In this document: positions 9,334 to 40,026 of the stretch, in pieces
Layout of the letters: every line of letters starts with the position of its first letter
Position numbering within the stretch: position 1 is the stretch's first letter
NCBI GenBank assembly: GCA_016213125.1
Contig: JACRBR010000354.1
Location: 1 to 40,026 of the forward strand
Origin: Chloroflexota bacterium
Lineage (GTDB): Bacteria; Chloroflexota; Dehalococcoidia; DSTF01; JACRBR01
Direction of reading: 5' to 3'
Length of the DNA stretch: 40,026 bases
The notes under the pieces: generated by a model
Told to the model about the DNA's origin: nothing
The model's database searches: none
What the model saw: only the letters and a program-made list of their open reading frames with translations
Program-made: the position numbers and the translations under genes

Positions 9334-9353
9334 CATACCCATCGGCGAGAAAT

Positions 9354-10781: not shown

Positions 10782-10791
10782 GGAGCACGCC

Positions 10792-21673: not shown

Positions 21674-21752
21674 GGAACCTCCGTGGGGAGGCCGGTCGCC
21701 ATCATCGTCGTTTCCATCGAGCCGGCGGACAAGTGCCGGTTATCAGGTCGCC

Positions 21753-21768
21753 CGGGCCATATGGCCCG
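21753..21768. promoter_or_regulatory. 16-bp perfect palindrome in the divergent alpha-B / mobB-fmdE promoter region
   Basis: CGGGCCATATGGCCCG, read directly. It lies in the 175-nt divergent intergenic region. Confidence 0.3.
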
Positions 21769-21848
21769 CGCCATTGTGCCTGCTGGCCCGAGCCACGCGA
21801 CTATCGGCTCTACCAGCGGGCTGTACTCGGGCGGAAACTCTGATCACT

Positions 21849-22964
21849 GTGACGCAAGTGATTCGCATCATCGGGCGGTCGGGTTCCGGCAAGACGACGC
21901 TACTGTGCGAAGTGGTGCGTTTCCTTGCGGATGCCGGTCTGCGCATCGCCGTGTTCAAGCACGCGCACCATCGTGTCGATCTCGATCGGAAGGGGAAGGA
22001 CTCCTTCCGCTTCGCCGAGGCCGGCGCCGCGTTCGTGACCGTCGTCTCGCCGGAGAAGGTCGCGGCATTCGAGGCTGTCACGAGCGGCGAGCCGACGCTG
22101 GAGGAGTTGCAGGCCCGTGTGCCCGCCGGGATCGTCCTGATCCTGACAGTGGGGTTCCATGCAGGAGAACCGCCCTACTTCCTGCTGCTTGGAGCGGAGA
22201 CAGAGCCGGACGAGCGCGCGCATCACGGCGAGCTGCTGGGCGTTATCGGCCGCCGCACCGGGTCCGGGACCGCCGCGATGTTCGACAGGGCCGACGCGGC
22301 CGGTGTCGCGCGCGCCATCCTGGCGCATGTCGGCCGGCGCGCAGCAGCCACACCGGACGAGCGGCTGAACGCGCTCCTGCGAGAGGCGAAGGCATATCAC
22401 GGGCACCTGTGCCCCGGGCAGTTGCTGGGTGTGCGCCTGGCGGTCCTGGGTTGCCGCGCCGTCGGCATCGAAGAGCCTCGCACCTCCAAGAAGCTGATCG
22501 TGTGGGTGGAGACGGATCGTTGTGGTACGGACGCGGTGCAGACGGTCACCGGATGCAAGCTGGGCAAGCGCTCGCTCAAGTTCGTGGACAACGGCAAGCT
22601 GGCCGCGACCTTCCTGAATACAGAGACGGGCGAGGCGGTGCGCGTGCTGGCTCGCGCGGACTCTCGCGAAAAGGCCGCCGCCGCGTACCCGAACCTCGAG
22701 CGGCACGCGGCGCAGATGGAGGCCTACCGCCTGTTGCCGGACGAAGCGCTGTTTGCCACGGAACCTGTACAGGTGACGCTGGGTGAGTTGGATCGGCCGG
22801 GCAAGCCGCAGATTCGGGTGACCTGCACCGCCTGCGGGGAAGAGGTGAGCGACGGGCGCCACGTGCAAGGCGACGATGGCCCACTGTGCCGTTCCTGCGC
22901 CGGCGGTGCCTATTACGTGGCGCTGGGCAGCAGCGGCGATGTGAAGTCGGAGGCGCGATGGTAA
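21849..22964 (+). CDS. MobB (MGD biosynthesis adapter, P-loop) fused to an FmdE-like domain with C-terminal zinc ribbon
   Basis: In frame with ORF 21651..22964. GTG 21849 is chosen because MobB proteins begin just before the P-loop (weak RBS, so the start is uncertain). MobB part: IIGRSGSGKTTL...VFKHAHH...KGKDSFRFAEAGA. FmdE part: YHGHLCPGQLLGVRL...ETDRCGTDAVQ...CTACGEEV...CRSC. Confidence 0.8.
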   Translation: MTQVIRIIGRSGSGKTTLLCEVVRFLADAGLRIAVFKHAHHRVDLDRKGKDSFRFAEAGAAFVTVVSPEKVAAFEAVTSGEPTLEELQARVPAGIVLILTVGFHAGEPPYFLLLGAETEPDERAHHGELLGVIGRRTGSGTAAMFDRADAAGVARAILAHVGRRAAATPDERLNALLREAKAYHGHLCPGQLLGVRLAVLGCRAVGIEEPRTSKKLIVWVETDRCGTDAVQTVTGCKLGKRSLKFVDNGKLAATFLNTETGEAVRVLARADSREKAAAAYPNLERHAAQMEAYRLLPDEALFATEPVQVTLGELDRPGKPQIRVTCTACGEEVSDGRHVQGDDGPLCRSCAGGAYYVALGSSGDVKSEARW

Positions 22965-23611
22965 CCGCAGTCCGTGTCTCGGCATCAGACGACGCTCTGC
23001 TCAATCCGGAAGGAAGCGGCTGGCGTGGGATCGGCCTTGAGCGTATCGAGCTGACCCCGACGCCCATCGTCCTCCAGCCGTCGGAGTACGTCCAGAATAA
23101 GTGGGAGCCCCTGGGCCACGGCGCGACGCCGGAGGTCCGGGTGGCGGCCGCGCACAACGGGACGGCCATCTTCTTCAGGATGGAATGGGACGACCCCACC
23201 GACAACAGCCAGCCGAACGACATGGCCGATTTCCCGGACCAGGCTGGTGTCATGATGCCGGTCAAGCAGGACGCGCCGATCACGGAAATGGGCCTCCCCG
23301 ATCAGCCCGTCAACATGTGGCTGTGGCGCCCCGATATGGAAGCGCCTCTGTATGTGACCTCGACGGGACGCGGCACCTCAGTTCGCCAGCCCGATACCCC
23401 GCTCTCGGGCTCGGGCATTTGGAGCGACGGGGTCTGGCGCGTGGTGGTTTCACGGCCCTTCAACGTGTCAATGCCGGCGGGCATCGTGGTCCCGCTCGCC
23501 CCAGGTGTCAGCCACAAGTGCACCTTCGCCGTCTGGCAGGGTGCGGCCAAGGAGCGCGGCGGACTCAAAGCCTTTCAGGCAACCTGGCAGCCGCTGGAGG
23601 TAGAACGATGA
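22958..23611 (+). CDS. EB_dh-type gamma subunit (heme-b subunit of type-II DMSOR enzymes), paralog 1, no signal peptide
   Basis: ATG 22958 follows GGAGG and overlaps the upstream stop (ATGGTAA). VRVAAAHNGTAIFFRMEWDD, FPDQAGVMMPV and WQGAAKERGGLKAFQATWQPL resemble EbdC/DdhC/SerC-type subunits. Confidence 0.8.
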   Translation: MVTAVRVSASDDALLNPEGSGWRGIGLERIELTPTPIVLQPSEYVQNKWEPLGHGATPEVRVAAAHNGTAIFFRMEWDDPTDNSQPNDMADFPDQAGVMMPVKQDAPITEMGLPDQPVNMWLWRPDMEAPLYVTSTGRGTSVRQPDTPLSGSGIWSDGVWRVVVSRPFNVSMPAGIVVPLAPGVSHKCTFAVWQGAAKERGGLKAFQATWQPLEVER

Positions 23612-24261
23612 CCGTCGCACCCGCCGTTGAGATCGATGAGGCGACCGCCGCGCGGTTCGCCATGTACCACAGCCTGACCGCCGCGTTGGAGTTCCCGTCG
23701 CGGACATTCTGGGAGGACGTCGGCTGCCGCGCGTTCGCTGACGGCGTTCAGGCGCTGATCGAAGGGCTTCCCTACGAGCTGTCGCGCGATCTTCCGCTGA
23801 AGGGGCTGGCCGGGAGCGGCGACTACGTCGACTTCCAGGGAGAGTACATCCGGCTGTTCGACGTCGGCGCCGTGCGGCCACCTTGTCCGTTGTACGCGGG
23901 GGAATGGGGGACGCCCAGGCGGCAAGCGATGGAGGACGCGCTTCGCTTCTACCGCTTCTTCGGCCTGAAGATGAACGAGGACGCGCGGGAACTCCCGGAC
24001 CACGTGACGGTGCAGCTTGAGTTCATGCAGGTGATGACACACGCGGAGGGCGAGGCGCGCGCGAACAACCAGGACCCGTCGCCGCTCATTCGCGCAGAGC
24101 GCGACTTTCTTCAGCGTCACCTGGCGCGGTGGTGGCCCCTGCTCCGCAAGCGGATCCCGAGCCAGCAGCCGTCCGCCTTCTACGACGCGCTCACGGCACT
24201 GGCGGAGAACTTCCTCGTCGCCGACCACGCGTACGTCCGCCGGCTGGCCGCGTCAGCCTGA
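23608..24261 (+). CDS. NarJ/TorD/DmsD-family redox-enzyme maturation chaperone (delta subunit)
   Basis: ATG 23608 overlaps the gamma TGA (ATGA). YIRLFDVGAVRPPCPLYAGEW...ALRFYRFFGL...ELPDHVTVQLEFM is typical of this chaperone family. Confidence 0.8.
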   Translation: MTVAPAVEIDEATAARFAMYHSLTAALEFPSRTFWEDVGCRAFADGVQALIEGLPYELSRDLPLKGLAGSGDYVDFQGEYIRLFDVGAVRPPCPLYAGEWGTPRRQAMEDALRFYRFFGLKMNEDARELPDHVTVQLEFMQVMTHAEGEARANNQDPSPLIRAERDFLQRHLARWWPLLRKRIPSQQPSAFYDALTALAENFLVADHAYVRRLAASA

Positions 24262-27541: not shown

Positions 27542-27659
27542 GGCTCCTCCAGCTAGGAAGAAGCCGGGGTCTGCGCACAGTATCTGACGACAGACGTCAT
27601 GCTCGTTAGAGCCATACGGCCCGGGCGCTGGCTGCCATCGGTCGCGCATCCTATGCCGT

Positions 27660-27671
27660 CGGCCATGGCCG
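27660..27671. promoter_or_regulatory. 12-bp perfect palindrome in the divergent alpha-C / alpha-D promoter region
   Basis: CGGCCATGGCCG, read directly. It shares the GGCCA/TGGCC half-sites with the palindrome at 21753-21768. Confidence 0.3.
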
Positions 27672-27845
27672 CAACATCCCGCCGTGCCCCTCCCGATCGA
27701 GGGCCCTTCGGAGGCTGCGGAGACTCGGTCCTTGAGCTTGTGCCGAACGGCCATGCCGAGGTAATGCCAAAAGACCCTATAACCCTTATTCTAGCAAACG
27801 CTAAATTAAGCGACGCCATCCATCGAGAACCAGAGAGGAGACGAG

Positions 27846-30722
27846 ATGGCAACGCCGAAGACACTATCCAAACCCCGGACCAGGTCCGGGAACGGATCGA
27901 AGGCCGTGACATTGCCGCCGGTCACGCTCTCGCGCGCCGCGCAGGCCGGTCCGATCGAGGACGAATACCGCGAGAAGATCAAGTGGCAGAAGTGGACGTG
28001 GGGTAGCCACTGCGTCGACTGCTATCCCAGCAACTGCCCCTTCAGGGTCTACGTCGGAAAAGACGGCGAGGTGTGGCGCGAAGAGCAAGCCGGCACCTAC
28101 GGCGTCGTCGAGGCGGGCGTTCCGGACTTCAATCCCGCGGGTTGCCAGAAAGGTGTGTCCTGGCACCGGCTCCTGACGGGGAAGGAGCGGGTGCTGAAGC
28201 CCCTCAAGCGCGCGGGTCCCCGCGGCAGCGGCCAGTGGCAGGAGGTGTCCTGGGACCAGGCGCTGGGCGAAATCGCCGACCACGTAATCGACGCGATCCA
28301 GGACCAGGGCCCCGAATCCATCATTCGCATCGGCGAGCCCGCGGAGGGCGGCACGCAGTCGCTCATCTACGGAAGCGCCGTGGTGAACCACATCGGCGGG
28401 ACGGTGACGGACGTCCAGGCCGAGATCAACGACTTTTCACCGGGGATCTACATCACCTTCGGCAAGTTCGATCCCGCGGCCAGCTGCGACGACTGGTTCC
28501 ACACGGACCTGATGCTCTGCTGGCAGATCAATCCCGCGTACACGTCGATCCCCTGGTACCACTTCATCGCCGAAGGGCGGTACCGCGGCGCCGAGGTTGT
28601 AGTCGTCGCTCCCGACTTCAACCCTACGGCGCCGCATGCCGATTACTACGTGCCGGTCCGCATCGGCACTGACGTGGCTCTCGCAAACGCGATGAGCCAG
28701 GTGATCATCGAGGAAGATCTGGCCGACTGGAAGTTCGTGCGCGAACAGACCGACCTTCCCCTCCTCGTGCGCCTCGATAACCAGCGCTTCCTGCGGGGAA
28801 GCGACGTCGATGGCGGTCGCGACGACCAGTTCTACTGGTTCGACGAAAAGACCCAGCAGGTCGTGGAGGCGCCTCGGGGGACGCTGGCGCTCGGCAAACG
28901 GAAGCCAGCGCTGGAGGGCGTGTTCAAGGCGAAGTTGGCCAACGGGAAGACCGTCAAGGTCACCACCGCCTTCGCGATGCTGAAGGACCTGCTGAACAGG
29001 GACTACACCCCGGAGAAGGCAGAGGCCATCTGCGGCACCAGCCCCGACATCATCCGGAACATCGCGCGCAAGGCGGCGAAGAAGCGCACGCGCATGCTCA
29101 TGGGCTGGAACTCCGGCAAGTACTACCACGGCGACCTCATGGAACGCTCGATGATGCTCATCCTGGCGCTCACAGGGAACTGGGGGAAGAAGGGCACCGG
29201 GGCGCGCTCGTGGGCCGTGGGGATGTTCGACGGGCAGTTCTTCGCCCCGAACAAGCCGGCGCCGGGCCAGGAGATCACCGCGCAGGCGATGGCCGGCCGC
29301 GACGCGATGTACAAGGCGCTCCTCGCCGAAGATCCGACCATGACCGAGGAGATCATCGGCCACGAGATGTCGTACCGCGGCGCCGCGATGGGTGGCACTG
29401 TCCCGCCTGCGTTCTTCTGGTACTACCACTGCGGCTACAAGGAGATCTGGAACAAGAAGACCTGGGGTGACGTGGGCATGAAGCGCACGTTCGATCAGTA
29501 CTTCGAAGAGGCGCTGGACAAAGGCTGGTTTACAGGGACCGTGCAGCCGGCCGCCACCCAGGAACCGCGCATGATCTTCGAGGTGGGCTCCAACCTGCTG
29601 CGCCGGACGCGCGGCGGGCAGAACATGCTGCTCAAGAATCTCTGGCCAAAGCTCTCCTGCATCGTCAGCATCGATTGGCGCATGAGCACGACAGGTCTGT
29701 GGTCGGACTACGTCCTCCCGGCCGCGCATCACTATGAGAAGCCGAACTTCTGTTACTCCACCCCCCACATCATGCACCTGACCTTCTCCGACCGGGCGGT
29801 GCCGCCGCGCGGCGAGTCCAAGGAGGAGTTCGAGATCGCCGTAGAGCTCTCGCGGAAGATCGAGGAGCGCGCAAAGGCCCGGAAATTCGTCGAGTACACC
29901 GACGCGCACGGGCAGCCGCGCCGCCTGGACGACATGGTCAACCGAATGACCCTAAACGGCTACTACAAGAACTCGGACAAGGTGCTCGACGAGATGGTTC
30001 GGGACAGCGTCGTGATGGGCAACCTGCCCGAGGGCACCACGCTGGACACCATGCGCGAGGAAGGCTACGTACGATTCACGGGCTGGGGCATGTCGCCCAT
30101 GGCCATCGGGCAGGCGTCCGACATCAAGGAAGACGAAACCCATGCGCCGTTCCGGTGGCACACCGAGAAGAAGATGCCATTCCCGACACTCACGCGCCGC
30201 GCGCAGTTTTATATCGACCACGACTGGTTCCTCGAGGCGGGCGAGCAGTTCCCCGTCCACAAGGACACGCCTGCGCAGGGCGGGGACTATCCCTTCCACC
30301 TGACGAGCGGACACCCGCGCTGGTCGATCCACTCGATGAACATGACCAACAGGATCATTCTGAACACGCACCGCGGCCACCCGTTCTGTTACATCAACAC
30401 GACGGATGCCGAGCAGCGTGGCCTCAAGGATGACGAAGAGGTCGAGCTGTACAACGACATGGGTGCGATGAAGGTTGCGCTACGCGTTGCGCCTTCGGTG
30501 CGGCCGGGTCAGCTCATCATCTACAACGGCTTCGAGCCGTACCAGTTCGACGAATGGCACGACCCGGCGAACGTTGAGCCCGGCATGGTCAAGTGGCTCG
30601 CCTTCGCGGGCGGTTATGGACACCTGCGGTATCGCGGCATTCACTGGCAGCCGGTCCCCATCGACCGGGCGATCCGCCTGGATGTCCGAAAGATTGCACA
30701 CGTCGGAAAGGAGGCAGTGTGA
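27846..30722 (+). CDS. Type-II DMSO-reductase-family molybdopterin oxidoreductase, alpha subunit (paralog D; closest to A; no Tat signal)
   Basis: ORF track; AGAGGAG RBS. WGSHCVDCYPSNCPFRVYVGKDG, EINDFSPG, REQTDLPLLVR, YYHGDLMER...ALTGNWG, TLTRRAQFYIDHDWFLEAGE and GGYGHLRY. Confidence 0.92.
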   Translation: MATPKTLSKPRTRSGNGSKAVTLPPVTLSRAAQAGPIEDEYREKIKWQKWTWGSHCVDCYPSNCPFRVYVGKDGEVWREEQAGTYGVVEAGVPDFNPAGCQKGVSWHRLLTGKERVLKPLKRAGPRGSGQWQEVSWDQALGEIADHVIDAIQDQGPESIIRIGEPAEGGTQSLIYGSAVVNHIGGTVTDVQAEINDFSPGIYITFGKFDPAASCDDWFHTDLMLCWQINPAYTSIPWYHFIAEGRYRGAEVVVVAPDFNPTAPHADYYVPVRIGTDVALANAMSQVIIEEDLADWKFVREQTDLPLLVRLDNQRFLRGSDVDGGRDDQFYWFDEKTQQVVEAPRGTLALGKRKPALEGVFKAKLANGKTVKVTTAFAMLKDLLNRDYTPEKAEAICGTSPDIIRNIARKAAKKRTRMLMGWNSGKYYHGDLMERSMMLILALTGNWGKKGTGARSWAVGMFDGQFFAPNKPAPGQEITAQAMAGRDAMYKALLAEDPTMTEEIIGHEMSYRGAAMGGTVPPAFFWYYHCGYKEIWNKKTWGDVGMKRTFDQYFEEALDKGWFTGTVQPAATQEPRMIFEVGSNLLRRTRGGQNMLLKNLWPKLSCIVSIDWRMSTTGLWSDYVLPAAHHYEKPNFCYSTPHIMHLTFSDRAVPPRGESKEEFEIAVELSRKIEERAKARKFVEYTDAHGQPRRLDDMVNRMTLNGYYKNSDKVLDEMVRDSVVMGNLPEGTTLDTMREEGYVRFTGWGMSPMAIGQASDIKEDETHAPFRWHTEKKMPFPTLTRRAQFYIDHDWFLEAGEQFPVHKDTPAQGGDYPFHLTSGHPRWSIHSMNMTNRIILNTHRGHPFCYINTTDAEQRGLKDDEEVELYNDMGAMKVALRVAPSVRPGQLIIYNGFEPYQFDEWHDPANVEPGMVKWLAFAGGYGHLRYRGIHWQPVPIDRAIRLDVRKIAHVGKEAV

Positions 30723-30724
30723 GT

Positions 30725-31363
30725 ATGCGCGCGAAGAAGGTCTCCAACGCTTCCGTCCTGCTGGATCCCGCCGCTGCGGGATGGCAGAAGGTGGAACGTG
30801 ACGTTATCGACCTGGTGGGCATGCCGGTCCACGTTCAGACATCACGGTATGTCCGGACGGTATGGGCCGACAAGCTGGTCGGAAAGGTGAGAGCCGTATC
30901 CGTGCGAGCGGCCCACGACGGGGAACGAGTCGCCTTCCTGTTGGAGTGGGCGGACGATACCCAGAACACAGAGTTCGCGGAGCGCATGTTCCCGGATGCG
31001 GCAGCCGTCCTGTTTCCCGGTAATGGCGCCGCACCGATCGGCACCCTGGGCGCACCCGATGCCGCGGTCAACGAGTGGTACTGGCGTGCCGATCTGGAAA
31101 CCGGCGAGAACCTCGTCGCGCACGGCCTGGGGACGGACAAGCCCACCAACGGCGCCGCGATCGATGCGAAGGGCGCCTGGAAGGACGGGCGCTGGTCCGT
31201 CGTGCTCAGCCGCCCGCTGAAGGCGAAGGGCGCGGACAACGTCAAGCTCACGCCGGGTAAGACGGCCAGCTTCGGCGTGACGATCTGGGAAGGCAGCAAT
31301 CGCGAGCGGGGCGACCTCCGGTCGTATTCGCAGCAGTGGCACGAGCTGACGCTCGAGCAATAG
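30725..31363 (+). CDS. EB_dh-type gamma subunit, paralog 2, no signal peptide; Arg at the position aligned with the paralog-1 Lys
   Basis: ATG 30725 (alternative GTG 30719 overlapping the alpha-D stop) after AAGGAGG. VSVRAAHDGERVAFLLEWADD, FPDAAAVLFPG and WEGSNRERGDLRSYSQQWHEL align with gamma-1. Confidence 0.8.
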   Translation: MRAKKVSNASVLLDPAAAGWQKVERDVIDLVGMPVHVQTSRYVRTVWADKLVGKVRAVSVRAAHDGERVAFLLEWADDTQNTEFAERMFPDAAAVLFPGNGAAPIGTLGAPDAAVNEWYWRADLETGENLVAHGLGTDKPTNGAAIDAKGAWKDGRWSVVLSRPLKAKGADNVKLTPGKTASFGVTIWEGSNRERGDLRSYSQQWHELTLEQ

Positions 31364-31373
31364 GAGGCGTCCC

Positions 31374-32456
31374 ATGGCGAAGAACGGTGCAAGTGCAAGC
31401 AAGGCCGCCATCGGTCACAAGGCACCTGGCCAGGTGGCGATGGTGTTTGACCTGAACAAGTGCATCGGCTGTCAGACGTGCTCCGTCGCGTGCAAGACGC
31501 TCTGGACGCGCGACGAAGGCACCGACTACCAGTGGTGGATGACCGTCAACACCTTGCCCGGCAAGGGCGCCCCCAAGGACTGGGAGCAGATGGGCGGCGG
31601 GTACCGCGAAGGCGTCCCGCAGGAAGGCACGCTTCCCACGCGTCAGGAGTTTGGCGGGGGTTGGGACTTCAACTACGACGAGGTCTTCTACCAGGGCAAG
31701 GGCAACACGGTGCACCTGCAGCCCGTCGGCCCTAAGCCAACCTGGGGTCCCAACTGGGACGAGGATCAGGGCGCGGGCGAGTACCCGAACGCTTACTACT
31801 TCTATATGCCGCGCCTGTGCAACCACTGCACGCGCCCGTCGTGCGTCGAGGCCTGCCCCCGTGGCTCCATGTACAAACGCCCCGAGGACGGCATCGTCCT
31901 GCGGGACGAGGACAACTGCCGGGGCCTGCAGTTCTGCGCCGAGGCCTGCCCGTACAAGAAGATCTACTTCAACTACATCAAGAAGGTCAGCCAGCACTGC
32001 ATCATGTGCTTCCCTCGTCTGGAGCAGGGTGTGGCGCCCGCCTGCGCCCGGCAGTGCCCGGGGCGCCTGGTCTTCGTCGGACACCTGGACGACGTCGATC
32101 GCCCGATTCACAAGCTGGTGTACGACTACGAGGTGGCCCTGCCGTTGCACCCGGAGTATGGCACCGAGGCCAACATCTTCTACGTGCCCCCCATGAGCCC
32201 GTACCGCCTGAAGGAAGACGGCAGCCTGGACATGGAGACGCCGCGTATCCCGATGGAATACCTCGAGCGTCTGTTCGGCCCCCGCGTGCACAAGGCAATG
32301 AACACGCTGCAGGGCGAGATGAAGAAGGTCCGCGCGGGCGGAAAGTCGGAGCTACTGGACATGCTCATCGTGTACCGCTGGCACACGCTGTTCGAGCCGT
32401 TTACGAGAGACCCAGTGGAGGTGGGTGGACCGCAAGCGGTGAAGAGCGGCAGATAA
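31374..32456 (+). CDS. NarH/EbdB-like iron-sulfur beta subunit (paralog 1)
   Basis: ORF track; GGAGG RBS. Cys groups CIGCQTCSVAC, CNHCTRPSCVEACP, CRGLQFCAEACP and CIMCFPRLEQGVAPACARQCP. Confidence 0.92.
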   Translation: MAKNGASASKAAIGHKAPGQVAMVFDLNKCIGCQTCSVACKTLWTRDEGTDYQWWMTVNTLPGKGAPKDWEQMGGGYREGVPQEGTLPTRQEFGGGWDFNYDEVFYQGKGNTVHLQPVGPKPTWGPNWDEDQGAGEYPNAYYFYMPRLCNHCTRPSCVEACPRGSMYKRPEDGIVLRDEDNCRGLQFCAEACPYKKIYFNYIKKVSQHCIMCFPRLEQGVAPACARQCPGRLVFVGHLDDVDRPIHKLVYDYEVALPLHPEYGTEANIFYVPPMSPYRLKEDGSLDMETPRIPMEYLERLFGPRVHKAMNTLQGEMKKVRAGGKSELLDMLIVYRWHTLFEPFTRDPVEVGGPQAVKSGR

Positions 32457-32489
32457 CTGGCAATCACGTTTTAGTTGAGGCCGGGGTCT

Positions 32490-32591
32490 GCACCCAGCCG
32501 GCGTCCCTGCAGGCGGCGATGAGCAAGTCGAGCGTTCCTCTTCGCAGGGGGCGCTGCCGGCGGAACCGCTTGAGATACGCCGGCTGGGTGC
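32490..32591 (+). promoter_or_regulatory. Structured intercistronic element (14-15 bp long-range stem enclosing ~73 nt) upstream of alpha-E
   Basis: GCACCCAGCCGGCG (32490-32503) is the exact reverse complement of CGCCGGCTGGGTGC (32578-32591). There is an inner CCCTGC/GCAGGG pairing, and a 26-codon Arg-rich uORF (32519-32599) runs through the 3' arm. Confidence 0.35.
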
Positions 32592-32619
32592 TTCAATAAA
32601 GAAAAGATGGGAATGGACT

Positions 32620-35535
32620 ATGAGCCGGCGTCTCAGTCGGCGGACGTTCCTCAAGGGCGCGGGCGCGACGGCAGCCGCCATCGGGCTCAGCCGTCTCGTG
32701 CCGTTACCGAACTTTGACATTATCCTCTCTACCTCCGCGCGCACGTACTCTTCCTTCGAGGACCTCTACCGTCAGAAGTGGAGCTGTGACAAGGTCACCT
32801 GGGGTACCCACCTCGTTGACTGCTATCCCGGCTCCTGCTCATGGCGCGTGTACACGAAGGACGGCGTCGTCTTCCGTGAGGAGCAGGGCGCGCAGTACCC
32901 GCAGATAGAAGAGCGCGTCCCGGACATGAACCCGCGAGGCTGCCAGAAAGGCGGTTGCTTCAGCGAGGTCATGTACGGGCCGGAACGGATCACCTACCCC
33001 CTCCGCAGAGCCAAAGGCTCGCCACGCGGCTCGGGCAAGTGGGAGCGCATCTCCTGGGACGAGGCGCTCACCGACATCGCGGATTCCCTGCTCGACGCGA
33101 TCGAGGCCCAGGGCCCGGAGTCGATCATCCATGAGTTCGGCTCTGGGGAGGGCGGTGTCGTCCATGGTTCGGTCCCCAGCTGGCGCCTCACGCGCCTCCT
33201 CGGCGGGACCGTCCTCGACAGCAACGGCCTCACGTCGGACTTCAACGTCGGAATGTATGAGACGTTCGGGAAGTTCCAGTTCGCCAGCTCGATCGATGAC
33301 TGGTACCACGCGGACTTGATCCTCCTCTGGCACATGAACCCGCTATTCACGCGGATCCCCTCCGCGCACTTCATCACCGAGGCGCGCTACAACGGTACAA
33401 AAGTCGTCTCGATCGCACCGGACTACAACGCCTCGACCATCCACGCGGACCTGTATGTTCCCGTCCAGCCGGGCACGGACGCGGCGCTGGCGCTGGGGGT
33501 CTGCAACCTGATCGTCGATCAAGGCGCCTACAACGCCGGCTTCGTTAAAGAACAGACCGACCTGCCGCTGCTGGTCCGTCAGGACACCGGGCGATACCTG
33601 CGCCGGCCGGACGTGGACGGCGAGGGCCGCGAGGATCAGCTCTACATCTGGGATGCGGCCGCCGACGCACTGACGCAGGCATCGCGCAAGACCCTGCAGC
33701 TGGACGATGTCGACCCGGCACTCGAGGGCGAGCACACGGTGCGCCTGCACGACGGCACCGAGGTCACGGTTGTGCCGGTGTTCTCGCTGCTTCGTCAGCA
33801 CCTGGCGCAGTTCACCCCGGAGCGCGTCTCCGAGCTGACGGGTGCCTCGCCGAATCAAGTGCGGCGGATGGCGGCGCTGGTCCTCGGCGCGAAGCGGATT
33901 CACATCCTCCAGGGCTTCAACACACCGAAGTACTACCACGGCGACCTGATGGAGCGTGGCATGGCCCTGATCCTGGCGCTGACTGGCAACTTCGGTCGCC
34001 AGGGCACGGGGATGCGCGGCTGGAACAGTAGCCAGCTCGTGATGGCCAACAACCTCAAGGCCAAGACGGGCTTCGAAGGGTTCATGGAGCTGGCCGAAAA
34101 CCAGCTTTCCCTGGAACACGAGTTCAAGAAGGCCGACCCGGACCTGACTGCGGAGATGCTGGCCGCGGAGGTCGAGCGCGACGAGTCGATCAACAGCGGC
34201 CTGTCCCCGTTACCAATGAGCGGAATGATGATCCCGCCCCACTTCTACTGGTACTGGCACGGCGGCTACCGCGAGGCGTGGAACAACCGCGAGTGGGCCG
34301 ACACCGGCATGAAGCGCACCTTCGACGAGTACTTCACCGAAGCGATCGACAAGGGATGGTGGGACGGGCTCGCCCAGCCGGCGCGCGATCAGACCCCCCA
34401 AGTACTGCTTGGCGCGTGCGGAAACTCGCTCCGCAGGACGCGCGGCGGCGGGAAGCTGCTGCTGGAGCATGCCTGGCCGAACTACAAGCTCATCGTGAGC
34501 ATCGACTACCGAATGAGCGCCACCGGCCGCCAGTCCGACATCTTCCTGCCCGCGGCCGCCTACTACGAAAAGACCGACTTCCGCTTCCCCACCGCCCACC
34601 TGAACTTCCTCGTCTTCACGGACAAGGCCGTCGACCCGCCCGGCGAAGCGAAGCCAGAGTGGGAGATCAACTGGCTCCTCGCCCAGAAAGTGGAAGAGCG
34701 CGCGCGGGCGCGAGGGATGGATGAGTACAGCGACCGCCGCGGCCGCCCCTACAACCTGCACGGCCTGCTGAAGCGCTTCGCCTACGACGGCCAGCTGGGG
34801 CCCGACGATGGCGAGAAGATCGCGGAGGATCTCGTCGCCGATACGGTCCGCGCGGGCGCCTTGCCCGAAAAAACGAACCTGGCCACGTTCCGCAAGAAGG
34901 GCATCGTACGGTTCACCCACGTCGGGATCGACGCGGTCGGCATGAACATGGCGACGGACATCGAGCCGAACAAGACGCTGAACCCCCTGCAGTGGCATGT
35001 GCGCGACAAGATCCCGTACCCGACGTACGCGCGGCGCATCCAGTTCTATATCGATCACGAGTGGTTCCTCGAAGCTGGCGAAGCCCTGCCGACCCACAAG
35101 CCCACGCCCAAGATGGGCGGCGACTTCCCGCTGACGATGACAAGTGGCCACCAGCGCTGGTCTATCCACTCGATGTGGGTGATCAACCGCGTCCTTTCGC
35201 GTACGCACCGCGGCCACCCCACGTTGAACATGAACCCCGAAGACATGAAGGCGCGCGGCATCGCGGATAACGACGTGGTGAAGGTGCGCAACGACTTCTC
35301 GTCGTTCGACGTACGGGTCAAGAGTTCGCCTTCCAGCCGGCCGGGGCAAGTCGTGATCTACCACGCCTGGGAGCCGTTCCAGTTCCCCGGCGGGAAGTCG
35401 TACGACGTGGCGATCCCCGGCCTCATCAAGTGGCTGCACCTGGCCGGCGGATACGGACATCTTCGCTATTACCGCTGGAACTGGGTGCCGCAGCAGGTAG
35501 ACCGGGGCGTGTCCGTAGAAGTGGAGAAGGCGTGA
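32620..35535 (+). CDS. Type-II DMSO-reductase-family molybdopterin oxidoreductase, alpha subunit (paralog E; Tat signal)
   Basis: ORF track. Twin-arginine leader MSRRLSRRTFLKGAGATAAAIGL. WGTHLVDCYPGSCSWRVYTKDG, LTSDFNVG, KEQTDLPLLVR, YYHGDLMER...ALTGNFG, ARRIQFYIDHEWFLEAGE and GGYGHLRY. Confidence 0.92.
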   Translation: MSRRLSRRTFLKGAGATAAAIGLSRLVPLPNFDIILSTSARTYSSFEDLYRQKWSCDKVTWGTHLVDCYPGSCSWRVYTKDGVVFREEQGAQYPQIEERVPDMNPRGCQKGGCFSEVMYGPERITYPLRRAKGSPRGSGKWERISWDEALTDIADSLLDAIEAQGPESIIHEFGSGEGGVVHGSVPSWRLTRLLGGTVLDSNGLTSDFNVGMYETFGKFQFASSIDDWYHADLILLWHMNPLFTRIPSAHFITEARYNGTKVVSIAPDYNASTIHADLYVPVQPGTDAALALGVCNLIVDQGAYNAGFVKEQTDLPLLVRQDTGRYLRRPDVDGEGREDQLYIWDAAADALTQASRKTLQLDDVDPALEGEHTVRLHDGTEVTVVPVFSLLRQHLAQFTPERVSELTGASPNQVRRMAALVLGAKRIHILQGFNTPKYYHGDLMERGMALILALTGNFGRQGTGMRGWNSSQLVMANNLKAKTGFEGFMELAENQLSLEHEFKKADPDLTAEMLAAEVERDESINSGLSPLPMSGMMIPPHFYWYWHGGYREAWNNREWADTGMKRTFDEYFTEAIDKGWWDGLAQPARDQTPQVLLGACGNSLRRTRGGGKLLLEHAWPNYKLIVSIDYRMSATGRQSDIFLPAAAYYEKTDFRFPTAHLNFLVFTDKAVDPPGEAKPEWEINWLLAQKVEERARARGMDEYSDRRGRPYNLHGLLKRFAYDGQLGPDDGEKIAEDLVADTVRAGALPEKTNLATFRKKGIVRFTHVGIDAVGMNMATDIEPNKTLNPLQWHVRDKIPYPTYARRIQFYIDHEWFLEAGEALPTHKPTPKMGGDFPLTMTSGHQRWSIHSMWVINRVLSRTHRGHPTLNMNPEDMKARGIADNDVVKVRNDFSSFDVRVKSSPSSRPGQVVIYHAWEPFQFPGGKSYDVAIPGLIKWLHLAGGYGHLRYYRWNWVPQQVDRGVSVEVEKA

Positions 35536-36596
35536 TGAAGGTCAACCTCGTCGCGGTTCAGGCAAAGCCCGTCATTTCGGACTACGCCGATGCCGAGTCC
35601 TTCTACCGCAAGATGGCCAGCCTGATGGACCAGGCCGCGAGCAAGGTCGACTTCTCGCAGCCGACGCTCGTCGTCTTCCCGGAAGGGATCGGTCTGCCGC
35701 TGGCATTCGTCCCGCAGACGTATGGTCAGTTCGGCGATGCGAAGACGATTGCCCGGGTGTTCATACGCGCCGTGCCGAAGAACCTCCCGCGGTTCCTGGG
35801 CGCCATCCTGAAGTACCGAACCTCCACGTTCCGGGCCGTGTTCCTCGAGACGGCCCTGGAGGCCGAAGACATCTACACCTCGACGTTCTCGACGCTGGCC
35901 CGCGAGCACGGTGTGTACCTGTGCGGAGGTTGCATCTATCTCCAGCACATAGAGGACGAGGCCGTAAAGGGTCGGCACATCGTCGGTCGGGCCGTGTACA
36001 ACCAGTCGTACCTCTTCAACCCTCAGGGCGTGTGCCTGCGGAGGACGCCGAAGATCAACCTTGCGCCGCCGACGGAGCCCCGGTTTGGCTTCAGCCCGGG
36101 TAATCGTTCCGATGTCATGCCCATCGACACCAAGATCGGTCGCCTCGGAACGCTGGTCTGCTACGACGCGTTTCACCGCAGCCTCATCGAACGCGTCGAC
36201 GCCATGGGCGTGGAGATCCTGATCAACCCTTCCCACAACGAACGCCGCTGGGAGGCCCGCGCCGGGTTCAACCCCGCCATCACCGTGGGCGAGGCGTGGA
36301 TGCAACACGGCCTGCCGACGATGATCCAGGGCCGCGAGCATCTCCGCTACGGCATCTCGCCCATGCTGGTAGGTCCCGTGTTCGATGTGAAGTCGCACGG
36401 GCAGTCGCGCATCTGCCGTAACCTTTCCCGGCCCGGTGCCGATCCGCACGAGTCGTTGCTCGCGGAGGCCGCCGTGGACGAAGAGGACATCATCTACGCG
36501 ACGGTCGAGGTGCGTGGGCATATCGGCACGAACGGCCATAATGCGACATCAGAGCTGCTCGATCACACGTTCATCGACCGCATACGGAGGGCGTGA
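35535..36596 (+). CDS. Carbon-nitrogen hydrolase (nitrilase superfamily) protein
   Basis: ATG 35535 overlaps the alpha-E TGA. Putative Glu-Lys-Cys triad in VVFPEG, RRTPKINL and GTLVCYDAF. Confidence 0.75.
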   Translation: MKVNLVAVQAKPVISDYADAESFYRKMASLMDQAASKVDFSQPTLVVFPEGIGLPLAFVPQTYGQFGDAKTIARVFIRAVPKNLPRFLGAILKYRTSTFRAVFLETALEAEDIYTSTFSTLAREHGVYLCGGCIYLQHIEDEAVKGRHIVGRAVYNQSYLFNPQGVCLRRTPKINLAPPTEPRFGFSPGNRSDVMPIDTKIGRLGTLVCYDAFHRSLIERVDAMGVEILINPSHNERRWEARAGFNPAITVGEAWMQHGLPTMIQGREHLRYGISPMLVGPVFDVKSHGQSRICRNLSRPGADPHESLLAEAAVDEEDIIYATVEVRGHIGTNGHNATSELLDHTFIDRIRRA

Positions 36597-37927
36597 TGGC
36601 TGTCCGCGCGACCACCGGCTGGCTGACCGCCCCGCCTCGACCCGCGGCGATGACGGAAACCCGCGCGCCCGGTGCGCTGGGTCAGGCGATGCTCTGGGGC
36701 GGCCTCTCGATGAGCCTCCTCGCGTTTGTGCCGGGTGCGTACCTCGTGCCGGCGCTGGGCTTGGGCGAAGCCATCACAATCGTGGTGCTCGGAAGCATCG
36801 CCGGGGCGGGCATGCTCGCGATGGTCGCGGCGCTCGCCGCGCGCCAGGGCAAGACGTCCGTTGGGTTGCTCTCATCGACACTTGGTATGCCGGCCGGCAC
36901 GACCCTTGCGGCCCTGCTGCTGTTGCGGCACACGCTCTGGGCGATCTTCGCGCTCACGTTCGCGGCGCGTGTCGCCACGAACGTCCCCACCCTGGGAGGA
37001 TCAACAGCCGTATGGGCGGTGGCGCTCGGCGCGCTGGCTCTGGCGCTGGCCCTGCTTCCCGCTCGGACGTTCGTGCAGGTGTGGATCGGCCGCTTCGCCT
37101 TCTGGGTCGGCCTGTTGGTCATCGCCCTGGTCACCGTGACGGGCGTGTTCACCTACGGCATCCCGATCCTGCACGACGCGGACGGCATGGGCGGCTGGCC
37201 GTCCCGGGCGCAAGGCTTCGACCTGATCGTCGCCCTGCCGTTGCTCTGGCTGCCCGTCGTCGCTGATTACGCAAAGGACGCCAGCTCTCCGAGGGCGGCC
37301 GCTATCGGCGCTGGAACCGGCGCCGGCGTCATGACGGCCTGGTACTGCATCGTTGGCGTGTTGTGGGTCTTTACAGTCAGCACGAGTGACGTCGCTGGAT
37401 TCATCACCGCGCTCCCCATCGGTGCTGCCGGACTCATCGTCGTCGTGGCGCTGGAATCGGACGCCGTGGCTGCGAACCTTTACGCTGCCTCGATGGCCGG
37501 AGGCCGGTTCGGGTACCGGTGGTTCCGCCCGGCGCTGCTTGCCACTGCGATGTTCGCCGGAGCGATCGTCGTCGCCACCGACGCCATCGACATCGAGGAT
37601 GCGCTCCAGACCCTCAGCATGATCTTCGTCCCGCTGTTCGCCGCCGTGCTCGTGCGGGGTGTGTTCTCGGTGACGCCGCGGTGGGCGGCGTGGACGGCCT
37701 GGATCGCCGGCGCCATGACCTACGGCTGGATAAGCCCCGGCGACTTCGGACCGTGGAAGGACGCCATGCACCTCTTCTTCGCGAAGATGTTCGACGCACC
37801 GTACCCGCTCGGCGATGAACTTACCTGGCTCCCGGCCACCGCTGCTGCCTTCGCGGTCTCCACAATGGTGTGCCTCACGGGGGCGTTGATCGCGTTGGCT
37901 ATTCGAGAGGGGGACGGCGATGGCTGA
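36596..37927 (+). CDS. Polytopic permease, NCS1 / purine-cytosine (CodB/CytX)-like
   Basis: ATG 36596 overlaps the hydrolase TGA, 5 nt after GGAGG. About 12 hydrophobic helices. The N-terminal WGGLSMSLLAFVPGAYL...ITIVVLGSIAGAGMLAMVA...GKTSVGLLSSTLG resembles the CodB family. Family assignment is by eye only. Confidence 0.6.
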   Translation: MAVRATTGWLTAPPRPAAMTETRAPGALGQAMLWGGLSMSLLAFVPGAYLVPALGLGEAITIVVLGSIAGAGMLAMVAALAARQGKTSVGLLSSTLGMPAGTTLAALLLLRHTLWAIFALTFAARVATNVPTLGGSTAVWAVALGALALALALLPARTFVQVWIGRFAFWVGLLVIALVTVTGVFTYGIPILHDADGMGGWPSRAQGFDLIVALPLLWLPVVADYAKDASSPRAAAIGAGTGAGVMTAWYCIVGVLWVFTVSTSDVAGFITALPIGAAGLIVVVALESDAVAANLYAASMAGGRFGYRWFRPALLATAMFAGAIVVATDAIDIEDALQTLSMIFVPLFAAVLVRGVFSVTPRWAAWTAWIAGAMTYGWISPGDFGPWKDAMHLFFAKMFDAPYPLGDELTWLPATAAAFAVSTMVCLTGALIALAIREGDGDG

Positions 37928-39071
37928 TCGAGCGCCAACACCTGAACGGCAGCTGGCTATGGTGTTCGACCTGAACAAGTGCCTCGGCTGCCAGACGTGC
38001 ACCATCGCCTGCAAGACCCTCTGGACGGACCAGGAGGGCATGGAACACATGTGGTGGAACGTGGTGAACACCCTGCCCGGCGCGGGCTCGCCACGTAACT
38101 GGATGGAGATCGCCGGCGGCTTTGGTGCGGACGAGAAGTCGAAGCCGAGCCAGTTGCCCACAAGCGAAGACTTCGGCGTGGCCTGGAACTACAACTACGA
38201 CGAAGTGTGGAACAGCGAGTCCAGCGTGCTGACAAAGGACCGCGAGGCCACGTGGGGTATGAACTGGGATGAAGACGAAGGCGACGGAGTGTGGCCGAAC
38301 AACTACTTCTTCTACCTGCCCCGCATCTGCATGCACTGTACGCGCCCGGCATGTCTTGAGGCCTGCCCGCGAACCGCGATCTACAAGCGCGAGGACAACG
38401 GCATCGTCCTCATCGACGAAGAGCGCTGCAACGGCTACCGCTTCTGCGCCGAGGCGTGTCCTTACAAGCGCATCTATTTCAACCCCGTGCGCAAGCTTTC
38501 GCAAAAGTGTGTGCTCTGCTTCGCCCGCGTCGAGCAGGGTGTCCCCCCGGCTTGCATGCGCCAGTGCCCCGGGCGCGTCCGCTTCTTCGGGTATCTGGAC
38601 GACGAAACGAGCGCCGTCTACAAGCTCGTGAAGAAATGGAAGGTGGCGATCCCGCTCCACCCGGAGTTCGGCACGCAGCCCAACCTGTTCTACGTGCCCC
38701 CACTGGCCCCGTCGCGCTTGCAGGAAAACGGAGATGTGGATGACGAACGGCCGCGCATCCCCGATGAGTACCTGGAATGGCTATTCGGTAAAGACGTTTG
38801 GCCGGCACTGGAGACATTGAAGGGCGAAATGGATAAGCGACGACGTGGTGAGTCTTCTGAACTTCTGGAGAACGTATGGCCTGCGCTCGGAGCCGTGAAG
38901 GGCGATACGGACGAGCGTCAGCCCGATGCGCCCTCCGAACTACTCGACATCCTCATCTCCTTCAAACACAAGGACATGTTCGGGGGGTTCGACCGCGACC
39001 CGGGCACGCTTGAACGCCAGCCCGGCCACGTGCCAGCGGGCGACCTGCAATCACCGCGGACCGGGGCGTAA
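37920..39071 (+). CDS. NarH/EbdB-like iron-sulfur beta subunit (paralog 2) with duplicated C-terminal segment
   Basis: ATG 37920 overlaps the permease end by 8 nt (ATGGCTGA). CLGCQTCTIAC, CMHCTRPACLEACP, CNGYRFCAEACP and CVLCFARVEQGVPPACMRQCP. Confidence 0.92.
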   Translation: MADRAPTPERQLAMVFDLNKCLGCQTCTIACKTLWTDQEGMEHMWWNVVNTLPGAGSPRNWMEIAGGFGADEKSKPSQLPTSEDFGVAWNYNYDEVWNSESSVLTKDREATWGMNWDEDEGDGVWPNNYFFYLPRICMHCTRPACLEACPRTAIYKREDNGIVLIDEERCNGYRFCAEACPYKRIYFNPVRKLSQKCVLCFARVEQGVPPACMRQCPGRVRFFGYLDDETSAVYKLVKKWKVAIPLHPEFGTQPNLFYVPPLAPSRLQENGDVDDERPRIPDEYLEWLFGKDVWPALETLKGEMDKRRRGESSELLENVWPALGAVKGDTDERQPDAPSELLDILISFKHKDMFGGFDRDPGTLERQPGHVPAGDLQSPRTGA

Positions 39072-39127
39072 CCGTGCGCCGCAACCCGATTCGACGTCCA
39101 TTGACCGCGACGTGCGAGCCGGTGACG

Positions 39128-39736
39128 CTACGGGTGCTGTGCGATAACGAACGCCTGTCTGGCCGTCGCGAGCTGCTCCCGACTGTTGACGTTGAAGAAC
39201 GATCGGAGCATGCCGTCTGCTTCCCGCAGCTGTTCTTCATCGATGTAGCAGACGCGCAGGTGGCGCAAGAATGCGCTCACGGCGAAGTCATCGCTGTTCA
39301 GCGCGCGCTCCAGCGCCGGAATGCACGTCTTGCGATACACCCCCAGCATCACATCGGGGCGGCCATCCACAACCGGAATAACCGCGTCATGGCCGTGCCG
39401 GCTGTCCAGCAGGAGCCGCAGCAGTTCTGGTTCGATGAACGGTGCATCGCACGGGATCACGATCGCGTACTCGGAGCGGGCGCACTGCAGGCCGGTGAAG
39501 ATGCCCGTCAGGGGTCCGCGGTCCGGGAGCAGATCTTCGCAGACGACCACCTGCACATCGGATCGAAGGGACGGCAGCGTCTGGTCCGGCGCGATGGTGA
39601 TGACCACTTCATCCACCATCGAGCCCAGCGCCGTGAGCGCGTACTGAAGCAGCGGCATCCCCGCCACCTCGACGGAAGGTTTGCTTCCACCGAGGCGCGA
39701 ACTGTATCCACCTGCGAGGACAACACCGGTCAGCAT
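39128..39736 (-). CDS. mobA: Molybdenum cofactor guanylyltransferase
   Basis: ORF track 39128..39895, with the start moved to MLTGVVLAGGYSSRLGG (ATG 39736). LAGGxxxR(L/M)G and VIPCDAPFI motifs. Confidence 0.85.
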   Translation of the reverse strand: MLTGVVLAGGYSSRLGGSKPSVEVAGMPLLQYALTALGSMVDEVVITIAPDQTLPSLRSDVQVVVCEDLLPDRGPLTGIFTGLQCARSEYAIVIPCDAPFIEPELLRLLLDSRHGHDAVIPVVDGRPDVMLGVYRKTCIPALERALNSDDFAVSAFLRHLRVCYIDEEQLREADGMLRSFFNVNSREQLATARQAFVIAQHP

Positions 39737-39870
39737 GGGCGCAAGATACGTGCGGCGGCCAGTGGGCGAAAAGGGCCGAATGGCTCGAAGCCCACATGCG
39801 CCTGCGCCCGTCCGGGAGAGCCATGAGCTGGACGGAGAACCCACCACGTGTTGACCGAGCGGACGACCTG

Positions 39871-40026
39871 ATGTCTCCGGATACCAGTCTCGCACGCGCT
39901 TTGCGCAACCTCCGCAGATTGACCGTCGTTGCGCCGGTGCTGTTCGTGGCCGGCGTCGAGATCCTGCTCCACGTTGTGTTCGATGGCTACTTCTCGCGCC
40001 TGGCGGCGATGACCATCACGTTGTCC
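39871..40026 (+). CDS. Partial N-terminus of a membrane protein (possibly a sensor protein); runs off window end
   Basis: ATG 39871 is the first start after an in-frame TGA, and the frame is open to the window end: MSPDTSLARALRNLRRLTVVAPVLFVAGVEILLHVVFDGYFSRLAAMTITLS. Divergent from mobA. Too short for any assignment. Confidence 0.3.
   Translation, partial: MSPDTSLARALRNLRRLTVVAPVLFVAGVEILLHVVFDGYFSRLAAMTITLS

Follow-up and report, generated by a model that had tools for sequence, protein, structure and literature searches.

Why the genes for a carbon-nitrogen (CN) hydrolase and a membrane carrier should lie between those for the catalytic alpha subunit and the iron-sulfur (Fe-S) beta subunit of a molybdenum (Mo) enzyme is the question raised by a locus of an uncultured Chloroflexota bacterium (Dehalococcoidia; GenBank assembly GCA_016213125.1, contig JACRBR010000354.1), of which positions 1 to 40,026 (hereafter the window; ~65% G+C) were analysed. 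Four genes on the forward strand form the unit under study. Alpha-E (32620..35535) is predicted to encode a catalytic subunit of the type II dimethyl sulfoxide (DMSO) reductase family, ethylbenzene dehydrogenase (EBDH) clade, that binds a Mo-bis(pyranopterin guanine dinucleotide) cofactor and an FS0 cluster and is exported by the twin-arginine translocation (Tat) pathway. It is followed by a CN-hydrolase of the nitrilase superfamily (35535..36596) that lacks a signal peptide and is presumed cytoplasmic, a 12-helix membrane carrier of the NCS1/CytX-like type with a predicted LeuT fold (36596..37927), and beta-2 (37920..39071), a four-cluster Fe-S electron-transfer subunit, likewise without a signal peptide.

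A first-pass annotation of the sequence had described the four genes as linked by three start/stop overlaps, and all three can be read directly from the DNA: TGA 35533-35535 with ATG 35535-35537 between alpha-E and the hydrolase, TGA 36594-36596 with ATG 36596-36598 between the hydrolase and the carrier, and ATGGCTGA at 37920-37927 between the carrier and beta-2. Purine-rich, Shine-Dalgarno-like stretches (GGAGAAGG, GGAGGG and GAGAGGGGGA) lie 5-10 nucleotides (nt) ahead of the three internal starts, inside the upstream gene. Gene overlaps are frequent in this compact, high-GC locus, where the gamma0 and delta genes described below also overlap by 4 nt, and because overlapping neighbours are so common here the overlaps alone constitute weak evidence of a functional link. 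The arrangement nevertheless appears non-accidental, on the grounds of its conservation rather than its overlaps. A promoter and terminator scan of positions 27000-40026 returned no more sites than shuffled sequence and none at the gene junctions.

Conservation was assessed by individual homologue look-ups, a scan of species-representative genomes and a metagenome-contig scan with alpha-E as the query, which together yielded ~20 distinct contigs with alpha-E at 76-94% identity (the window clade). Every contig long enough shows the same order, namely alpha-C on the opposite strand and then alpha-D, gamma, beta-1, alpha-E, hydrolase, carrier and beta-2, with stops and starts overlapping or abutting at all three junctions of the unit; no counter-example was found among the ~20 contigs. 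Relative to the closest relative, L105 (dS ~0.5), the ratio of nonsynonymous to synonymous substitution (dN/dS) is 0.061 for alpha-E, 0.059 for the hydrolase, 0.094 for the carrier and 0.049 for beta-2, indicative of purifying selection on all four genes. Full-text literature searches found no description of this gene arrangement.

More distant lineages retain the arrangement in a modified form. In a sister lineage (L005/L006), an alpha-D-like gene, a beta gene and an alpha-E-like gene (61% identity) are followed by the carrier (33%, 501 amino acids (aa)) and then by the hydrolase (53%), which is positioned after the carrier with an 18-nt gap. A larger lineage (L093, L109 and L110; ~40 carrier clusters) is devoid of the hydrolase and has the order gamma, beta2-type, delta, gamma, beta1-type, delta, alpha-941 (no Tat), alpha-976 (Tat) and carrier. 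Alpha-976 is 64% identical to alpha-E in L093 and is followed by the carrier with a 4-nt overlap, while its neighbour alpha-941 has no twin-arginine motif in the L109 lineage. In both of these lineages, the carrier gene comes immediately after the Tat-bearing alpha and either overlaps or abuts it; in the window clade it comes after the hydrolase, which itself comes after alpha-E; and in the lineages examined it was never seen after a Tat-less alpha. Identity between lineages is 61-64% for the alpha and 33-35% for the carrier. Since the carrier follows the Tat-bearing alpha across lineages, including the one that lacks the hydrolase, the old and stable link at this locus appears to be that between these two genes, with the hydrolase linked in two lineages only (the window clade and L005/L006).

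Several expectations of the first-pass annotation are settled by this survey. The conserved synteny that it had proposed looking for does exist, the order being kept in ~20 contigs and, modified, beyond them, so that the arrangement is not unique to this genome; nor did the two inserted genes prove to be of unrelated families, as detailed below. Its picture of two genes wedged between an alpha gene and the cognate beta gene holds for the window clade and fails for the sister lineage, where the order is beta-alpha-carrier-hydrolase, as well as for the larger lineage without the hydrolase.

Certain loci depart from these patterns. In L091 and L092, an intact carrier gene follows a delta chaperone gene and precedes ATP-binding cassette (ABC) transporter genes. 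Just upstream of the carrier in L092 (935-1174), a 79-aa open reading frame (ORF) is what remains of the C-terminus of alpha-E (52% identity over 67 aa), and both loci (L091 8902-10230 and L092) look like a decayed module with a surviving carrier. In L013, a closed chromosome of a metagenome-assembled genome (MAG; OY969567.1), alpha-D and alpha-E are each split into two frames (2358-5208 and 7100-9995); given that the genes on either side are intact, frameshift errors in the assembly seem more likely here than genuine pseudogenes. Directly after the hydrolase of the sister lineage stand two radical-SAM genes with best scores to AhbC and AhbD (L005 7852-10268; L006 3447-5911), and the opposite strand carries genes for cytochrome P450, ferredoxin, Amidohydro_2 and cytochrome oxidase. 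AhbC and AhbD belong to the alternative, sirohaem-dependent haem b pathway.

The distribution of the carrier bears on whether it has any metabolic link to the Mo enzyme. The carrier, with or without the hydrolase, might instead form a cassette that works independently in salvage or nitrogen scavenging (of pyrimidine or thiamine-pyrimidine compounds, for example, as has been proposed for CytX), merely shares the operon and has been inherited vertically. Its persistence without a functional alpha-E in L091/L092, the confinement of the arrangement to one phylum and the frequency of overlapping genes in this genome are all compatible with such a cassette. What it does not readily accommodate is the adjacency to a Tat-bearing alpha that is kept in L005/L006 and in L093/L109/L110, at carrier identities down to 33% and through rearrangement of the gene order.

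Alpha-E carries the Pfam domains PF00384 (153 bits) and PF01568 (62 bits) together with a Tat signal, which matches both PF10518 and TIGR01409 and whose SRRTFLK motif is kept in all orthologues, distant ones included. Against TIGR03479, the type II alpha model, it scores 981.6 bits over its full length, for a cut-off of 984.75, and it aligns end to end with the EBDH alpha subunit (2IVF_A) at 795 bits, versus 474 bits for perchlorate reductase. In the 2IVF_A alignment, Asp207 of alpha-E corresponds to the EBDH Mo ligand Asp223, the H-x3-C-x4-C motif of FS0 and its distal Cys are present, and the equivalent of Lys450 is kept. Sequence comparison thus identifies alpha-E as an EBDH-clade type II DMSO-reductase alpha subunit bearing a Tat signal; it is not an EbdA equivalog, as its score against NF042978 (843 bits) is far below the cut-off of 2000. 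Lipoprotein anchoring of alpha-E was considered and rejected, the signal region containing no cysteine in the window clade.

Beta-2 exceeds the cut-off of the type II beta model TIGR03478 (494.5 vs 480.7 bits), also matches Fer4_11 and contains four Fe-S cluster motifs. Its orthologue is the beta-346 type of L109 (59% identity) and not the beta-1 type (53%), which supports beta-2 as the partner of alpha-E. The pairing of the two in the first-pass annotation accordingly stands, beta-2 belonging to the beta orthogroup that co-occurs with alpha-E-type genes, and it is presumably co-exported with alpha-E. Residues ~333-358 (window 38916-38993) form a 26-aa insertion that occurs in the window and L105 and is absent from the other orthologues; it resembles a diverged duplicate of the preceding segment (VWPAL..KG......SELL), and Tandem Repeats Finder detects no DNA tandem repeat in beta-2.

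The heme b gamma subunit and the delta chaperone are not encoded within the four-gene unit, and the earlier remark to that effect is literally correct, with the qualification that an orphan gamma-delta pair occurs elsewhere in the window. This pair (22958-24261) consists of gamma0 (22958..23611, forward strand; EB_dh, haem b type, PF09459) and delta (23608..24261, forward strand; a NarJ/EbdD-type chaperone, PF02613, and the only one in the window). The two genes overlap by 4 nt, adjoin neither a beta nor a same-strand alpha gene and are located 9 kb upstream of the unit. Gamma0 is only 35% identical to the gamma located after alpha-D. The L109 lineage has a gamma-beta2type-delta set alongside its Tat-bearing alpha. 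Gamma0 is therefore a possible third subunit for alpha-E/beta-2, delta probably matures the alphas, alpha-E included, and the orphan pair could in this way supply the subunits missing from the unit.

EBDH of Aromatoleum aromaticum (EbdABC with the chaperone EbdD; PDB 2IVF) is the closest characterised counterpart, sharing with the unit the full-length alpha alignment, the Asp Mo ligand, FS0, the Lys450 equivalent, the Tat signal and a beta subunit that passes the type II beta model. The alpha-E unit differs in having no in-line gamma or delta gene, in containing a carrier and an amidase inside the operon, and in its host, a Chloroflexota bacterium with secreted cupredoxins encoded nearby. EBDH is not cytoplasmic, in contrast to the apparently cytoplasmic Tat-less alphas of the window. 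A second relative, the steroid C25 dehydrogenases (S25DH) of Sterolibacterium denitrificans, shares with alpha-E the class II DMSO-reductase subcluster whose members use water for hydroxylation (PMC6016249). The same text assigns an N-terminal Tat sequence to alpha-1, the one S25DH alpha for which a location signal is given there, and proposes a periplasmic location, which differs from the window, where four of five alphas have no Tat signal; it also documents the sharing of beta and gamma subunits among many alphas, and in what it reports of the S25DH clusters neither a carrier nor an amidase is described (PMC6016249). As far as that account extends, S. denitrificans resembles the window in having many alpha paralogues, eight against the five found in these 40 kb, and smaller numbers of genes for beta, gamma and chaperone; because the alphas outnumber these genes, subunits are probably shared among alphas in both cases. 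A Sterolibacterium-like, proteobacterial origin of the locus, suspected from the many alpha paralogues, was ruled out, as the close homologues are all from Chloroflexota/Dehalococcoidia MAGs.

The membrane carrier has no Pfam match even at E=10, PF02133 included. Its best curated match is the NCBIfam model CytX (TIGR02358), a predicted hydroxymethylpyrimidine carrier of thiamine regulons, at E=1.7e-26 and 93 bits against a cut-off of 309.85. CytX is the best match in all lineages (E 1.7e-26 to 1.3e-38), with scores of roughly a third of the cut-off or less (93-133 vs 309.85 bits), and the carrier locus differs from CytX loci in having neither a thiamine pyrophosphate (TPP) riboswitch nor thiamine genes. 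Relatives of the carrier in other lineages also match ncs1 (TIGR00800) at ~1e-10, and those at ~30% identity have PF02133 and bear source names such as NCS1 or purine-cytosine permeases. An AlphaFold model (pLDDT 88.9, pTM 0.89) has its best PDB fold match in CodB (7QOA; TM 0.69/0.76), followed by CHT1 (SLC5-type) and then by Mhp1 and other LeuT-fold carriers, while the family profile, searched against all PDB sequences, finds only Mhp1 (3e-6) and CodB (2e-4). By profile and predicted fold, the carrier is thus assigned to the NCS1/CytX type. That CytX is its closest named family is a further point in favour of an independent salvage cassette.

Within the carrier, W115 and W218 align with Mhp1 W117 and W220, the tryptophan pair between which Mhp1 holds its substrate. 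The breaks of transmembrane helices 1 and 6 (TM1 and TM6) are where invariant residues concentrate, and the family has no invariant His or Cys, a combination that favours a functional carrier over a redox anchor. The helix-break residues and the Trp pair give only indirect indications of nucleobase-like, cation-coupled transport, and a planar N-heterocycle as substrate is hinted at solely by the NCS1 family and the conserved Trp pair. Hydantoin-utilisation (hyu) operons likewise combine an NCS1 permease (Mhp1/HyuP) with an N-carbamoyl-amino-acid amidohydrolase. The unit resembles them in placing an NCS1-type carrier beside a C-N hydrolase and in the Trp pair aligned with that of Mhp1; it differs in that it has no hydantoinase, dihydropyrimidinase or racemase gene, a Mo enzyme takes the place of the ring-opening step, and the hydrolase is not a recognised carbamoylase.

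These carrier features also bear on a structural explanation, in which the membrane protein would serve as a dock or tether for alpha-E/beta-2 at the outer face of a single-membrane cell, replacing the missing membrane or haem subunit, and the hydrolase would carry out an Lnt-like maturation or envelope reaction at the membrane. In favour of a dock, the unit itself encodes neither gamma nor a membrane anchor, and the carrier gene is translationally coupled to a Tat-bearing alpha in every lineage. On the other hand, the carrier keeps its transporter hallmarks, has no invariant His, Cys or Met-type cofactor ligands and remains intact where alpha-E is a remnant; alpha-E has no lipobox cysteine in the window clade; and we know of no NCS1 protein that acts as an enzyme anchor.

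The hydrolase matches PF00795 at 65.3 bits, against a gathering score of 23.2. The Glu-Lys-Cys candidates that the first-pass annotation had picked out in the FPEG, KINL and VCYD motifs of the translation are E50, K173 and C209, and all three are invariant in 18 homologues spanning 51-100% identity. An AlphaFold model of moderate confidence (pLDDT 76) adopts the alpha-beta-beta-alpha sandwich fold and gives >180 PDB matches at E<=0.001 with Foldseek; all 50 of the 50 matches listed are nitrilase-superfamily proteins. The families first proposed for the two inserted genes are thus borne out, the hydrolase by its fold and intact triad and the carrier by profile, PDB profile search and fold model. 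Beyond the superfamily, comparison with NCBIfam models and solved structures places the hydrolase in no characterised branch (nitrilase, amidase, carbamoylase, Lnt and others): fold matches at 14-20% identity include amidases, Nit2, formamidase and cyanide dihydratase with no branch preferred, and no NCBIfam model comes near its cut-off, the best being Lnt at 1e-6 and 28 bits vs 132.9. Approximately 45 extra residues between the catalytic Glu and Lys form an insert (~residues 53-125) that is modelled as helical and part of which looks amphipathic from sequence. The N-terminus is of the ordinary cytoplasmic type, without a signal peptide.

Lnt itself, in which a CN-hydrolase domain is joined to a membrane domain, offers a similar pairing of a CN-hydrolase with a polytopic membrane protein, with the difference that in the unit the proteins are separate, the membrane partner has the LeuT fold rather than the Lnt fold and the hydrolase has no export signal. 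No hydrolase-carrier fusion was found among the 150 best representatives, and scanning of ten longer representatives revealed fusions to PAP2, F5/8-type-C and peptidase M15 domains. The Lnt match, the extra amphipathic helical insert and the fusion of hydrolase relatives to PAP2 membrane and cell-wall peptidase domains all lend something to the docking explanation; set against this, the Lnt match is far under the family cut-off (28 vs 132.9 bits), and with the carrier evidence taken into account we consider docking improbable.

The gene position of the hydrolase might suggest yet another role, that of a third subunit of the exported enzyme, which would travel through the Tat pathway with alpha-E/beta-2 and replace gamma. 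A gene placed between alpha and beta with stop/start overlaps typical of subunits, in a unit without gamma, would be expected of such a protein. The sister-lineage hydrolase, however, comes after the carrier with an 18-nt gap, the largest lineage has no hydrolase, the protein has an ordinary N-terminus of the cytoplasmic type and an intact hydrolytic triad, and an orphan gamma is available in the window, so that a subunit role is very hard to sustain.

At >=70% identity, ~54 database clusters are related to the hydrolase, each of them derived from metagenomes or from Chloroflexota/Dehalococcoidia MAGs. Hydrolases linked to Mo genes fall into two sister groups, one in the window clade and one in the L005 clade, apart from paralogues in other contexts, and the link to Mo genes holds down to 53% identity despite the changed gene order. 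This sister grouping fits a single recruitment followed by retention through rearrangement, with the hydrolase as a later addition to the alpha-carrier pair, and the separation of the Mo-linked clade from paralogues elsewhere also speaks against an unconnected cassette. Paralogues at 47-52% identity lie away from Mo genes (L002 8001-9023, L111 10001-11020 and L004 8001-9002). The recurrent neighbours of those in L002/L003 and L111 are a LysR regulator, a TPP enzyme and a protein with the AP-endonuclease fold, the L002 paralogue being additionally near two family-III coenzyme A (CoA)-transferases, and neighbours of the L004 paralogue include a TPP enzyme and enoyl-CoA hydratases. Contexts of distant homologues (<=50% identity) were tried as a clue to the substrate and set aside, consisting of LysR, TPP-enzyme, CoA-transferase or unrelated neighbourhoods; homologues at 30-35% in Deinococcales and Myxococcota gave no clue either.

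Upstream of the unit, the 163-nt gap between beta-1 and alpha-E is unusually conserved, and comparison of 18 distinct sequences revealed a candidate cis-regulatory leader RNA, a conserved structure of ~125 nt (32474..32601, forward strand). It consists of a P1 stem of 13-15 bp, with arms CCCAGCCGGCGUCC / GGACGCCGGCUGGG, that closes ~75 nt, together with a small 5' hairpin that is invariant, a P2 stem and a P3 hairpin that varies; two loop blocks, GAUGAGC and CCAGCGG, are likewise invariant. Of the 24-25 pairs predicted by RNAalifold, 10 show compensatory changes. On a structure-blind MAFFT alignment, 93.5% of cells are paired, compared with 30-48% for slid (shifted) control pairings, and none of 500 shuffles reaches any of the measures. 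Two divergent copies fold alone into the same architecture (z-scores -3.2 and -3.1). A covariance model finds one match per orthologous locus, at 82-140 bits in the sense orientation versus 17-29 bits in antisense, and none elsewhere in 480 kb or in L005- or L093-type loci; the orthologous sites are those of L001, L007, L009, L011, L013, L014, L016, L018, L020, L094-L097, L099, L101, L104 and L106. The alignments therefore support a conserved, covarying and strand-specific structured RNA in the 5' leader position, which appears to mark alpha-E, the hydrolase, the carrier and beta-2 as a separately regulated unit. Its location ahead of alpha-E, and not ahead of the carrier, is a further difficulty for the independent salvage cassette, which on balance is judged unlikely.

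As to its function, the leader could act as a riboswitch, bind a protein or mark a site of processing. Known RNA families (Mo cofactor, TPP, purine and others) were examined and none matched in Rfam at the gathering score, with only noise at E<=10. No expression platform could be defined, and no terminator was found. Switching by pairing between the 3' arm of P1 and the region of the start codon was also considered and rejected: the window shows a 12-nt complementarity, and the orthologues (7 loci) do no better than shuffles.

Taken as a whole, the export signals predict a layout in which the Mo enzyme acts outside the membrane and the hydrolase inside, with the carrier spanning the membrane between them, as alpha-E bears a Tat signal and the hydrolase has a cytoplasmic-type N-terminus. 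The best reading of the locus, favoured tentatively, is that of a catabolic module that spans compartments, with oxidation outside the cell, import of the product by the carrier and cleavage by the amidase in the cytoplasm. Alpha-E with beta-2, and possibly the orphan gamma, would be exported in folded form via the Tat pathway and, at the outer face of the membrane, would use water to oxidise or hydroxylate a small substrate in the manner of its EBDH-clade relatives. Electrons would pass to secreted or lipoprotein cupredoxins and then to the respiratory chain. The product, too polar to diffuse in, would be imported by the dedicated CytX/NCS1-type symporter, and in the window clade and one sister clade a cytoplasmic nitrilase-superfamily enzyme would cleave a C-N bond (amide, carbamoyl or nitrile), releasing ammonia. 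The leader RNA may set expression of the four genes apart from that of the upstream alpha-D, gamma and beta-1 genes. We infer rather than observe which way flux runs, what class the substrate belongs to, that all three proteins act on a single compound, that cupredoxins are the partner and what the RNA does.

This sequence of oxidation, import and hydrolysis is favoured because the carrier follows only Tat-bearing alphas (a remnant of one in L091/L092), keeps its transporter hallmarks and stays intact where alpha-E has decayed (L092); because the hydrolase keeps its catalytic triad and is linked to Mo genes; because order and coupling are identical in ~20 window-clade contigs, with dN/dS of 0.05-0.09; and because cupredoxin genes adjoin the carrier (L093, L110) and occur in the window. 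Several considerations weigh against it. NCS1 carriers usually move polar compounds. All characterised EBDH-clade enzymes, by contrast, act on hydrophobic alkyl chains (PMC6016249). The orthologous flanks contain no ring-opening hydantoinase or other pathway gene conserved beside the unit, and the absence of the hydrolase from the largest carrier-bearing lineage implies that alpha and carrier can be partners without hydrolysis. Because every lineage belongs to Chloroflexota, shared descent could account for some of the conservation. Finally, the fusion of distant hydrolase relatives to PAP2 and D-Ala-D-Ala peptidase domains, together with Lnt as the best curated hit, hints at envelope chemistry rather than catabolism.

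A bolder version of extracellular oxidation followed by import would specify the compound and the novelty of each part: a hydroxylase acting outside the cell on a polar nitrogen compound, such as an alkyl-substituted pyrimidine or another N-heterocycle, dedicated import by a CytX-like NCS1 carrier, a new branch of the nitrilase superfamily and a new riboswitch class sensing the compound. Such a full scheme is doubtful.

The wider window is rich in related genes. In addition to alpha-E, it encodes four type II DMSO-reductase-family alphas, alpha-A (15850-18768, forward strand), alpha-B (18884-21673, reverse), alpha-C (24758-27754, reverse) and alpha-D (27846-30722, forward), giving five alpha, two beta, two gamma (EB_dh) and one NarJ-like delta gene, along with a MobB-FmdE fusion and MobA (39128-39895, reverse). 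Alpha-E is the only one of the five alphas with a Tat signal; alphas A-D and both gammas have neither a twin-arginine motif nor a signal peptide. As four of five alphas carry no export signal, the existence of cytoplasmic EBDH-clade enzymes in this organism is suggested. A single ORF at 21651-22964 (forward) joins MobB, involved in molybdopterin guanine dinucleotide (MGD) synthesis, to FmdE and a DksA/TraR-type zinc finger, an unusual fusion in a Mo-enzyme island. Genes at 3951-5489 (reverse), 7994-9268 (forward) and 10729-11838 (forward) encode secreted cupredoxins of several domains, one of which has a WxL domain for cell-wall binding, as well as a WxL-interacting protein. Lipoprotein cupredoxin genes adjoin the carrier on the other strand in L093 and L110, and in L091/L092 they come after the ABC-transporter genes; the homologous lipoprotein beside the carrier in L109 has no Pfam match. 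Cupredoxins are plausible electron acceptors for the exported enzyme.

Each protein of the unit belongs to a known superfamily, with the carrier and the hydrolase falling, by the model comparisons above, outside every curated subfamily. What appears new, going by the literature searched, is the combination, in uncultured Chloroflexota, of an exported EBDH-clade Mo enzyme with an NCS1-type carrier, an amidase and a leader RNA. All characterised members of the EBDH/S25DH clade hydroxylate the hydrophobic alkyl chains of aromatics or steroids without oxygen. That an exported Mo enzyme of this clade is linked in a conserved way to an amidase and a nucleobase-type carrier points to substrates of a class new to these enzymes and to a pathway layout of oxidation outside the cell, import and hydrolysis inside. 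If the polar nitrogen compound proposed above were indeed the substrate, alpha-E would be the first oxygen-independent hydroxylase of its clade outside hydrocarbon and steroid metabolism, and the leader RNA, if it binds a ligand, could identify that substrate directly. The locus thereby provides a handle on the function of the many EBDH-like genes that are counted as 'hydrocarbon degradation' markers in metagenome surveys of Chloroflexota.

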